Below are positions 2,334 to 3,056 of a stretch of 30,811 bases of DNA, in pieces; the first letter of the stretch is position 1; every line of letters starts with the position of its first letter. Position numbers and translations under genes: made by a program. The notes under the pieces were generated by a model that saw nothing but the letters and a program-made list of their open reading frames with translations, ran no database searches and had not been told where the DNA came from. Source of the DNA: Candidatus Bathyarchaeota archaeon (GTDB lineage Archaea; Thermoproteota; Bathyarchaeia; Bathyarchaeales; Bathycorpusculaceae); NCBI GenBank assembly GCA_963768425.1, contig CAVYHV010000018.1, forward strand, positions 1 through 30,811, given 5' to 3'.

Positions 2334-3056
2334 TTAGATTTGTAGACCGAGAGTTGAATGTAAGGAAAGACCTTCCGTTACTGGGAGTTGAAGAATAATA
2401 GAGACCTCTCGGTTTTCTACCCTAAAGAGTTCATAAATTTCTTTTAACAGATAGGTTGCAATTCTATTTCGCGCTATTACATCGATTGCTTTTTTGCTTC
2501 TTTCGGGGTATCTTTGGCTTAAGTCTTCTTTGAATTTGATGTATAGCGGGTAATATTTAGCGTCCTTGTAAATAATTGTCTCTTTGCTGAGTTCATGCAT
2601 TATTGGCTTGATTCTTCTGCTGTACCTCTTTAATTTCCTAGATGCTTGCGTGTATCCGCAGTAGAAGAGGAATTTTCGTTGGCTTGGAAACCTGTTTGGG
2701 TGAGCATATGCTAAAATTCCAGCTAAGCTAATCACACCGAACCCTTTGATGTGCTTAACTTTTGGAAGCTCATCCTTCATTAAGACTTTAAGTTCTTTTG
2801 ATAATGTTTTCTTAAGCAGTATTGCTTGTTCTAAACCGATTTCAGGTGTCTTATCGAAGTCTTTCTGGTAAGCGGTACTCCAATTTTTCATAGTGACCAA
2901 AATGGTGTTAACTTTATCGTATTCTCGCATTGTACGTGATAGTGGCGTGTTGTGTGGCTCTGTTCCATGGATTTTCTGGTGTTCTCTGCGTGGAATAGGC
3001 ACTGTTTCTTTCGGCTTATTCTTCTTGTCAGGATGATGATTCTCAGTAGTTTGCAT
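2334..3056 (-). CDS. HNH-motif + IS110/Nop-like domain protein (TasH-like RNA-guided nuclease candidate), 240 aa
   Basis: N-terminal ENHHPD-x15-HQKIHG HNH-like motif; helical coiled-coil region; HIKGFGVISLAGILA..RFPSQRKFLFYCGY as in the IS110 Transposase_20/Nop fold; no DEDD RuvC domain and no SG catalytic serine loop. Start at ATG 3056 is favoured over TTG 3140 by the promoter position. Confidence 0.72.
   Translation of the reverse strand: MQTTENHHPDKKNKPKETVPIPRREHQKIHGTEPHNTPLSRTMREYDKVNTILVTMKNWSTAYQKDFDKTPEIGLEQAILLKKTLSKELKVLMKDELPKVKHIKGFGVISLAGILAYAHPNRFPSQRKFLFYCGYTQASRKLKRYSRRIKPIMHELSKETIIYKDAKYYPLYIKFKEDLSQRYPERSKKAIDVIARNRIATYLLKEIYELFRVENREVSIILQLPVTEGLSLHSTLGLQI
2342..2420 (-). 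ncRNA. TIGR-like stem-loop guide RNA unit with two 9-nt spacers
   Basis: Minus strand: ACCGAG-AGGTCT-[CTATTATTC]-TTCAACTC-CCAGTAACGGA-AGGTCT-[TTCCTTACA]-TTCAACTC-TCGGT; closed by 8-bp stem ACCGAGAG/CTCTCGGT plus GTAG/CTAC. Confidence 0.7.

Follow-up and report, generated by a model that had tools for sequence, protein, structure and literature searches.

A single stem-loop guide RNA framed by a conserved bulge-helix-bulge motif at the 3′ end of an archaeal tas gene, and its probable splicing from the effector mRNA

How is a guide RNA freed when it is encoded within the 3′ end of the gene of its own effector? This question is raised by a locus of a Candidatus Bathyarchaeota archaeon, located on a stretch of 30,811 nucleotides (positions 1 to 30,811 of contig CAVYHV010000018.1, GenBank assembly GCA_963768425.1) that is called the window here. 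On the minus strand of the window, an open reading frame (ORF) whose last base is at position 2334 runs through a structured RNA element. A preliminary description, made from the letters of the DNA, had seen in this element a single stem-loop guide with two 9-nt spacers and unusual boxes. Based on the comparison of homologous loci, public RNA contigs and the gene content of the genome, we consider it on balance probable that the locus is a stem-loop TIGR-Tas system whose guide is spliced, as a bulge-helix-bulge (BHB) intron, from the tas mRNA.

A pattern search of the window located the sequence AGGTCT-N9-TTCAACTC in two exact copies on the minus strand, at 2385-2407 and 2351-2373, in agreement with the preliminary description. 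The 9-mer of the first copy is CTATTATTC (2393-2401), and that of the second copy is TTCCTTACA (2359-2367). When up to three mismatches were allowed, seven matches were found in the window against 3.16 expected, the two copies being the only exact ones, and no further exact copy is present in the rest of the 2,958,400-base genome. Both copies are framed by an 8-bp helix, in which ACCGAGAG (2406-2413) is base-paired with CTCTCGGT (2346-2353), and by a 4-bp helix formed by GTAG (2417-2420) and CTAC (2342-2345). This stem of 8 and 4 bp had been recognised from the outset; the extent first given to the element, 2342-2420, proved too short, because a 10-bp outer helix, which pairs 2421-2430 with 2329-2338, encloses both inner helices and extends the full element to 2329-2430. 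The sequence folds better than its shuffled versions on either strand (z of -3.28 on the minus strand and -2.66 on the plus strand).

The product of the ORF is a compact Tas protein, with a Nop-type and coiled-coil core and an HNH-like N-terminus. As called mechanically, the ORF opens at a TTG codon (3138-3140) and encodes 268 aa (2334-3140, minus strand). Translation more probably begins at the ATG at 3054-3056, because the conserved part of an alignment of 28 homologs begins near residue 29; additionally, the 240-aa members of the protein cluster begin at the methionine encoded by this codon, and the predicted local distance difference test (pLDDT) score is low for residues 1-29. With this start, the tas gene spans 2334-3056 on the minus strand and encodes 240 aa in its unspliced form. 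The window protein matches the NCBIfam family NF052498 (TIGR_Tas_endo) with an E-value of 3.6e-9, as do all 28 aligned homologs (best E-value 7.6e-15), and it has a weak match to Pfam Transposase_20, which is also matched by 21 of the 28. A search of 5.8 billion proteins returned 58 relatives with identities of 37-99%, nearly all of them unnamed. Against the PDB, the family profile matched SpTasH (9W04, E-value 1.5e-8) and TaTasR (E-value 6e-8), and Foldseek ranked TasR (9MTY, E-value 7e-6) and TasH (9W04, E-value 2e-5) before the IS621 recombinase (8WT6, rank 9). The AlphaFold (AF2) model has a pLDDT of 86.5, with residues 30-240 confident and residues 241-268, which are those encoded by the RNA element, disordered.

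Residues 66-240 (2421-2945) form the coiled coil and the Nop-type RNA-binding core, a region modelled at a pLDDT of 90-99 and identified by both Foldseek and the PDB profile search; the window protein thus has the Nop-type RNA-binding domain and the coiled-coil dimerisation helix of the stem-loop class of Tas proteins. This conserved core ends at KEIYELFR, beyond which the tail is present, absent or unrelated depending on the homolog. N-terminal to the core, residues 33-59 (2964-3044) comprise a beta-beta-alpha element, modelled as strands 32-35 and 47-50 and helix 51-57, in which H35, H36, P43, H54 and H58 are nearly invariant. The stretch with H54 and H58 aligns to the HNH part of SpTasH, and the Asn position of HNH domains is not conserved. 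Distant homologs show CxxC...HH...CxxCH..IH at the N-terminus and, because these homologs add two CxxC pairs, the N-terminus of the window protein looks like a reduced HNH domain, as predicted from alignment and model.

The preliminary description had suggested that the 3′ regions of homologous genes be aligned, with the expectation of conserved boxes, covarying stems and variable 9-mers, and all three were found. The window was compared with 40 related loci, one on a contig of a Candidatus Bathyarchaeota metagenome-assembled genome (MAG) and 39 on metagenome contigs, giving 41 sources with the window. Most loci share a common plan on the gene strand, located just after the protein core: a stem, GUCU, 9 nt, UNNAC, a hairpin or A-rich linker, GUCU, 9 nt, UNNAC and the closing stem. 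A covariance model (R1), built from 14 loci and run on the 41 sources (180,455 bases), identified the unit in 29 of them, always on the gene strand and with at most one functional unit per source; beyond these it matched only a degenerate remnant next to a fragment of tas (L014) and, in L034, an antisense echo. The remnant, L014:3568-3690, consists of a partial second tas (the last ~27 codons) followed by the outer helices, with the guide almost wholly deleted, and looks like a decayed unit. No tandem array of several units was found among the 41 sources, each locus having at most one unit, and R1 gave one match on the window's own genome. On one contig of 81,764 bases, two diverged tas paralogs (L024 and L027) lie ~27 kb apart, each with its own single guide and with a short A-rich linker in place of the hairpin.

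Diverged units were recognised by eye in five more loci (L021, L027/L028, L029, L035 and L046), and a comparable unit lies 5′ of tas in L036, L042 and L040, the last of which is matched by R1. In this distant clade, the units (L036:~225-290, L042:~1150-1215 and L040:322-400) are located just upstream of or over the tas start, and the boxes of L042 deviate (AGCU ... UGCAAC). No guide unit was seen in L047-L049, and L041 is a contig that is cut off.

In the model alignment, which was fitted to the structure and in that way favours covariation, 22 of 26 pairs were changed on both sides. Such changes filled 103 cells, compared with 20-35 after the partner column was slid by 1-3 positions, and none of 500 shuffles reached the observed covariation score. 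All nine pairs of the outer helix (P1, helix 1 of the alignment) show two-sided changes at some point in the alignment. In the inner helix (P3, helix 4), identified by folding and covariation with its 5′ arm at 2406-2413 and its 3′ arm at 2346-2353, all six pairs were changed on both sides and 91.8% of the cells are paired. The inner hairpin that joins the two halves (P4, 2372-2387, helix 6) has such changes in four of five pairs and is replaced by a short A-rich linker in some homologs.

The information content shows the opposite behaviour of boxes and spacers, with 1.5-2.0 bits per position in the boxes vs 0.03-0.53 bits in the 9-mers. In the first half of the window element, a box C-like GUCU (2402-2405; 1.47-1.72 bits, in 20 of 21-22 sequences) lies 5′ of spacer A (9 nt, 2393-2401; alignment columns 45-54, 0.03-0.35 bits), which is followed by a box D′-like UUCAAC (2387-2392) whose U..AC is invariant (columns 56, 59 and 60, with 22/22, 22/22 and 17/17). 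The second half is built from a box C′-like GUCU (2368-2371; 1.73-2.0 bits), spacer B (9 nt, 2359-2367; columns 91-100, 0.05-0.53 bits) and a box D-like UUCAAC (2353-2358), with columns 101 and 104 invariant and column 105 conserved in 20 of 21 sequences. The spacers also turn over between close relatives: L037 and L038 have the same sequence throughout the 180 nt of tas upstream, and of the 15 differences among their 262 aligned positions, 12 fall on the 18 positions of the spacers. Because the boxes are conserved, the stems covary and the 9-mers vary and are swapped between near-identical loci, we read the element as a programmable guide.

The stem-loop class of tigRNAs is characterised by two spacers of 8-12 nt between box C-like and box D-like motifs, repeated in a hairpin loop, and by variable spacers on a conserved scaffold; both traits are present here, with spacers of 9 nt. 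TIGR box motifs have been described to diverge yet covary between the two halves (TIGR-Tas papers). The published boxes, in the portions of PMC12045711 and bioRxiv 10.64898/2026.09.09.750476 that describe them, are CCA/UG (TaTasR) and CUU/UG (PateTasR), in which the C of box C pairs with the G of box D, whereas the boxes found here are GUCU/UNNAC, closed by G-C. The earlier proposal of a symmetric two-guide variant class with non-canonical boxes was borne out in these comparisons, which add a Tas relative as its partner. The element is very probably a single stem-loop tigRNA with unusual boxes.

The structure that frames this guide suggests how it could be released. A BHB motif is defined as a 4-bp helix between two 3-nt bulges and is recognised by the archaeal tRNA-splicing endonuclease (EndA), according to the relevant section of PMC7714728. 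On the gene strand, the window element has a central helix (H) of 4 bp set between two bulges of 3 nt, both located 3′ of their strand of H, and flanked by a helix of 10 bp on the outer and one of 8 bp on the inner side, which is the hBHBh′ form. The 5′ arm of the outer helix h, which is P1 (2421-2430), lies inside the last conserved tas codons and has a G.U pair next to H; its 3′ arm (2329-2338), seen by folding and covariation, holds the tas stop codon (2334-2336). The 5′ arm of H (GTAG, 2417-2420) is exonic and its 3′ arm (CTAC, 2342-2345) is intronic, and the inner helix h′ is P3. The bulges are both AAA, at 2414-2416 on the 5′ side and 2339-2341 on the 3′ side, and the BHB finder together with the RNA joint described below places the predicted splice sites after 2415 and after 2340. 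The predicted BHB intron, 2340-2414 on the minus strand, would be the excised dual-guide RNA of 75 nt.

A strict finder (3-4-3 motif, flanking helices of at least 4 and at least 5 bp) identified a BHB enclosing the unit in 21 of 40 loci, corresponding to 16 distinct RNAs with predicted introns of 58-81 nt. H occurs in nine variants (GTAG/CTAC, TGTG/CACA, CTAG/CTAG, GCGG/CCGT, CATG/CATG, GCAG/CTGC, ATGG/CCAT, GTGG/CCAT and GGAG/CTCC). The first base of the bulge is A in 19 of 20 cases on the 5′ side (column 25) and in 20 of 20 on the 3′ side (column 124), and the two bulges are often unlike each other, e.g., ATA/AAT or AAA/ATC. Chance matches to the strict motif occur elsewhere in the loci about once per 4 kb, and those inspected look spurious. 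Applied to a host tRNA gene, the finder placed the intron at the canonical position, 37/38, and left an anticodon loop of 7 nt. We take the cut to fall after the second base of each bulge, as in tRNA numbering, which is consistent with this control. The intron calls of ARAGORN were too imprecise to serve as a control, one tRNA excepted; at G000:C24:6389-6509(-), ARAGORN reports Ser(CGA) with a non-canonical intron, and from the BHB geometry the intron has 35 nt and lies at 37/38, so that the anticodon is CAA (Leu).

Public RNA data contain the product predicted by this motif. The window stretch was found in 20 public runs, six of which are metatranscriptomes, and four RNA runs from four studies, all stored as assembled contigs, were mapped on 1700-3500; their contigs leave 2005-2065 and 3103-3163 uncovered. 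In X15 and X16, which belong to two different studies, one contig each passes from 2338 to 2414 and leaves out the 75 nt between; three letters at the joint are ambiguous, and removal of the predicted intron yields the same product. Assembled contigs of two studies consequently hold an RNA whose junction falls in the bulges. In X15, the assembly splits cleanly at 2312 and 2443 into two branches of one bubble, joined (depth 10.3) and unjoined (depth 14.5). In X16, the only contig across the site is of the joined form (240 nt, depth 6.2, otherwise with no differences), extending to 2599 inside tas, which includes 186 nt of coding sequence, and to 2285 downstream.

The host also encodes a splicing endonuclease and an RNA ligase: the own genome has two EndA paralogs above the Pfam cut-off (97.9 and 79.3 bits) and RtcB. 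Having two paralogs is consistent with the (alpha-beta)2 enzyme known from TACK archaea, which is described in the section of PMC7714728 on these enzymes as having a broader specificity and tolerating relaxed BHBs. RtcB, at G000:C8:125066-126375(-), is split into neighbouring pieces, one matching profile positions 1-303 and the other 299-426, which share 16 nt and are by calculation in different frames, the result of a frameshift or an assembly error. Because the BHB is conserved, an RNA lacking the 75 nt is present and the genes for EndA and RtcB are encoded, the guide appears to be released as a BHB intron, and BHB processing of the guide is, in our judgement, quite likely.

Several observations weigh against this explanation. 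AAA stands on both sides of the joint, and template switching or DNA slippage would give the same product; the contig-only runs carry no strand, ends or excised-intron reads, and the joint was examined in one allele. About ten RNA-bearing loci (L014, L017, L019, L024/L033, L027/L028, L030, L034 and L043) have only a relaxed BHB, and no canonical BHB was found in the clade with a 5′ guide (L036, L040 and L042). Minimum free energies calculated for 20 RNAs, better for the sense strand in 11 and for the antisense strand in 8, do not discriminate the strands. A search of the own genome, which is 91% complete, gave no target for the 9+9 spacer pair in either arrangement with a gap of 0-2 and up to two mismatches. 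Regarding the protein, the NF052498 score of 36.9 is far below the curated cut-off of 100 bits, and no Pfam HNH family matched. Finally, the archaeal assignment of the contig comes from binning and one independent MAG record; the genus itself is archaeal, because each of 12 same-genus genomes has Nop5.

Some of these points would also suit the alternative that survives best, which we nevertheless consider unlikely: that the RNA is a Tas tigRNA whose BHB-like geometry is merely an extended, Tas-bound stem, that the skip is a reverse transcriptase template-switch artefact or a DNA deletion allele, and that another RNase matures the guide, in line with what has been proposed for stem-loop systems of bacteria. 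The three ambiguous letters of the joint, the single assembled contig per run and the imperfect BHBs of several homologs agree with it, as does the occurrence of stem-loop tigRNAs with extended stems in candidate phyla radiation (CPR) bacteria, which are without EndA. However, it leaves unexplained the combination of a 3-4-3 geometry, an A as first bulge base and a covarying H in 16 RNAs with bulges that are often non-identical, and the presence of a canonical motif on the gene strand only. An artefact is also opposed by the recurrence of the same joint in two studies and by its being the sole assembled form in X16. A deletion allele, in turn, is opposed by the 75 nt retained in all four near-identical DNA contigs (L010-L013) and by the proteins, since none of the six own-cluster sequences inspected (15 listed, 23 in all) has the form without the 25 codons.

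The preliminary description had noted that the last ~28 codons of the ORF run through the RNA. The overlap itself was confirmed, with the final 28 codons encoding residues 241-268 in the ORF of 268 aa, but it is not new, because an overlap of stem-loop tigRNA and tas has already been published: stem-loop units can sit inside the tas coding sequence, the 3′ end included, in disordered segments, as reported in the part of Xu et al. 2026 that deals with these units (bioRxiv 10.64898/2026.09.09.750476). The likeness to tnpB and omegaRNA that had been drawn from it is a loose analogy only. The overlap is also incidental, because about half of the homologs have their stop codon before or inside the RNA, the intron lengths are mixed and the tail is modelled as disordered. 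Among the 16 strict cases, the predicted intron length is not a multiple of three in ten and is a multiple in six, and the form that yields the short protein end, spliced or unspliced, differs by locus. In the window, loss of the 75 nt keeps the frame, drops 25 codons and ends the protein one codon later at the same stop. The variation of intron frame and protein end among homologs leads us to regard the C-terminal tail as read-through of the RNA element and not as a selected peptide.

Two side observations concern the variation of this tail and its surroundings. Two cluster members, P0064 from the cluster of the window protein and P0077 from that of the L013-type protein, have different short tails directly after a conserved VENR, which would imply that alleles exist whose sequence differs around the stem and spacer A. 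In the syntenic comparison of window 2417-3060 with L013:2902-3620, the flanks are 95-98% identical and the guide with its downstream DNA 98-100%, and the tas coding region between them shows 60-88% identity only, with the switch at ~2440-2460, the 5′ edge of the RNA. Judging from these identities, the pattern looks like allelic replacement or fast protein divergence with the guide kept.

A cis-acting mRNA element without guide function, whether a 3′ structure for stability or termination or a BHB intron whose sole effect is a shortened Tas C-terminus, would fit the location at the 3′ end of the mRNA. It also has precedents, since mRNA BHB introns without a known function exist in cbf5 and in the 5′ untranslated region (UTR) of HVO_1309, as listed in the passages of PMC7714728 on such introns. 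Nevertheless, we consider it very improbable. The two symmetric pairs of conserved boxes around hypervariable 9-mers and the wholesale replacement of these 9-mers between otherwise identical loci speak against it, the architecture is that of published stem-loop tigRNAs adjoining a Tas gene, and homologs are inconsistent in how splicing would alter the end of the protein.

Regarding the strand, the reason for doubt given at first was a slightly better pairing of the inner hairpin when read on the plus strand. This is correct for the window, where the hairpin has one C.A mismatch on the minus strand. The same position is perfectly paired in the near-identical loci L010-L013 and in one RNA contig (2385 G>A), and the mismatch is a single-nucleotide polymorphism specific to the window; the doubt is much reduced by this and by a BHB that is canonical on the gene strand only. 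A looser finder (flanking helices of at least 3 bp each and a sum of at least 9), applied to 34 distinct regions, identified the motif around the unit in 22 on the gene strand; on the opposite strand, it identified a mirrored-site motif in none of the 34 and unrelated matches in 7. The gene strand is favoured because on the plus strand the bulges lie 5′ of H, and BHB geometry settles the strand better than pairing energies do. Counts of G.U vs A.C pairs on the model-fitted alignment are noisy because the outer helices are out of register.

A functional RNA from the plus strand, antisense to tas, is accordingly more improbable still. It could draw on the better pairing of the window hairpin, on the A.C next to the bulge in L014 and L017, which is a G.U on the plus strand, and on the undecided comparison of free energies. 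However, beyond the private mismatch and the lack of mirrored sites, the G.U pairs that the window has in P1 and that L029, L037 and L038 have in H would become A.C on that strand. The position of the unit within the tas transcript is constant, whereas the flanks downstream of it vary and offer no shared promoter, and the joined RNA contig continues for 186 nt into the tas coding sequence. Additionally, the A-rich linkers and the pyrimidine-rich 5′ box resemble the polarity described for known tigRNAs.

Box C/D RNAs have RUGAUGA and CUGA boxes that form kink-turns, and their guides are about 12 nt long. An ordinary archaeal box C/D small RNA (sRNA) for 2′-O-methylation with Nop5 and fibrillarin is the least probable reading, despite the archaeal host, the symmetric two-guide loop and the parallel of BHB excision in the tRNA-Trp intron sRNA (as presented in the pertinent part of PMC12558985), since both boxes are absent from the element, its spacers have 9 nt, Rfam gave no family at threshold (the best over the element being 10 bits vs a gathering score of 160), and the RNA is always linked to tas and absent from the ten Nop5-bearing same-genus genomes listed, with one weak match to the family in 400 other genomes of the phylum.

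For a guide spliced from the tas mRNA, the following course can be proposed. The locus would be a minimal archaeal TIGR-Tas system of one compact HNH-like Tas and one two-spacer stem-loop tigRNA, in which the guide would be transcribed as part of the tas mRNA. EndA, the candidate cutter, would cleave in both 3-nt bulges and free the 75-nt guide (2340-2414), which may be circularised, and RtcB would rejoin the tas mRNA, so that the disordered tail is shortened by 25 codons and the stop codon is unchanged. If the solved Tas complexes are a guide to their homolog, the two symmetric box pairs would then be bound by a Tas dimer, and the two spacers would be used on opposite strands of an 18-bp DNA target; DNA targeting and any nuclease activity are presumptive. 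That effector and single guide come from one transcript, from which EndA and RtcB excise the guide, possibly as a circle, and reseal the mRNA, we hold to be moderately probable.

When three mismatches were allowed, the own genome contained 11 and 5 sites for the two arrangements of the spacer pair, about the number expected by chance (a hand estimate gives ~6 per arrangement). Across 21 loci, the only site with up to two mismatches is at L017:3770, a weak lead. This 18-bp site (L017:3770-3789) corresponds to the locus's own spacer pair in arrangement B, with a 2-nt gap, the reverse complement of A and two mismatches, and is located roughly 170 nt upstream of its tas start, as estimated from position. 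It may be a chance match in AT-rich DNA or a hint of autoregulation.

The family is rare, with no member in the ten same-genus genomes listed and one weak match in 400 other genomes of the phylum. No relative of the window Tas was found in viral contigs, and PHROGs gave no match for Tas or nine neighbours. Based on Pfam, the neighbours of tas are ordinary cellular genes or ORFans; those in L029 are a methylase, DUF3987 and UvrD. In the own, 91%-complete genome, Pfam Nop (Nop5) had no match and fibrillarin a sub-threshold one only; the likeliest explanation is that the Nop5-fibrillarin locus is missing from the assembly. The neighbouring gene of 341 aa was not found in 12 same-genus genomes and has a 51%-identical paralog on another contig (G000:C19:12290-13330). 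An ABC ATPase gene (22207-23178) has a 91%-identical copy on C14 (33617-34576), and the synteny query was uninformative because of paralogs. The region 371-2001 of the window, which contains an Nramp transporter gene (570-1850), is missing in L012 and L013, where window position 2002 is followed by 370, and is present to at least 1764 in L010 and L011; it represents an insertion/deletion polymorphism beside tas.

The maturation of tigRNAs, especially of the stem-loop ones, is left open in the TIGR-Tas papers, as far as their sections on maturation go (PMC12045711; bioRxiv 10.64898/2026.09.09.750476). In the locus studied here, the sequence names a candidate maturation enzyme and predicts with single-nucleotide precision where it would cut, and the product expected from these cuts is seen in public RNA data. 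If splicing of the guide is true, stem-loop tigRNAs would have a maturation route borrowed from the host. It would also provide a third kind of substrate among the BHB introns outside tRNA and rRNA, those found being cbf5 and one haloarchaeal 5′ UTR (in the covered part of PMC7714728), and this substrate would be a guide RNA that targets DNA and is carried by the mRNA for its effector. An effector of 240 aa with one self-excising guide would be about the smallest RNA-guided unit described. Furthermore, the locus would be a living parallel to the box C/D sRNA of the tRNA-Trp intron, linking TIGR-Tas with the way in which the box C/D guides of archaea arose and bearing on the proposed descent of box C/D small nucleolar ribonucleoproteins from TIGR-like systems. 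What is new is a one-guide archaeal stem-loop TIGR-Tas of an HNH-like type with a conserved BHB framing the guide, which on present evidence is spliced from the effector mRNA.

Among known systems, the closest are the stem-loop TIGR-Tas systems (Faure et al. 2025, PMC12045711; Xu et al. 2026; PlTasA, bioRxiv 10.64898/2026.08.11.744272). As in the window, they have a Tas protein with Nop and coiled-coil parts, a hairpin loop with two spacers of 8-12 nt between 5′ and 3′ boxes, a palindromic covarying stem, an optional hairpin between the spacers and no Y/H processing loop. They differ in having arrays instead of one unit per gene, a C-G instead of a G-C closing pair, and a phage or CPR bacterium instead of an archaeal chromosome as their source. 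A canonical BHB stem and an RNA form lacking the guide are seen only here; no published BHB or intron route for tigRNAs was found, the main texts of Faure 2025 and Xu 2026 making no mention of introns, and their supplements may list archaeal or single-unit loci.

TasH of Salicola phage CGphi29 (PDB 9W04; PMC13421893) is the best PDB sequence match (E-value 1.5e-8) and a top structural match, and it has the same order of an HNH-like N-terminus followed by a coiled coil and Nop. It is longer (354 aa vs 240 aa), retains the zinc-binding cysteines that are lost here, and has a C-terminal Y289/H296 loop, which serves the self-processing of its guide and is absent from the window protein; its guide is a 36-nt dual repeat, whereas that of the window is a stem-loop. 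The bridge RNA of IS110/IS621 shares a related RNA-binding domain and one structured guide per gene with internal loops. Unlike IS110/IS621, the window locus has no RuvC or Tnp recombinase domains and no element ends were found, and its loops belong to one symmetric unit instead of target and donor loops.

The processing proposed here has its counterpart in the box C/D sRNA of the tRNA-Trp intron (PMC12558985) and in the mRNA BHB introns of cbf5 and the HVO_1309 5′ UTR (PMC7714728), where, in the accounts given in the relevant parts of these papers, an hBHBh′ motif is excised by EndA and ligated by RtcB. In the tRNA-Trp case, as described there, the intron itself is a two-guide RNA bound by a Nop-domain protein, and the same is proposed for the window. 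In contrast to these introns, as far as those parts describe them, the host transcript in the window is the mRNA of the guide's own effector. The boxes deviate from the box C/D consensus, and the partner is Tas, presumably DNA-targeting, in place of Nop5 and fibrillarin.

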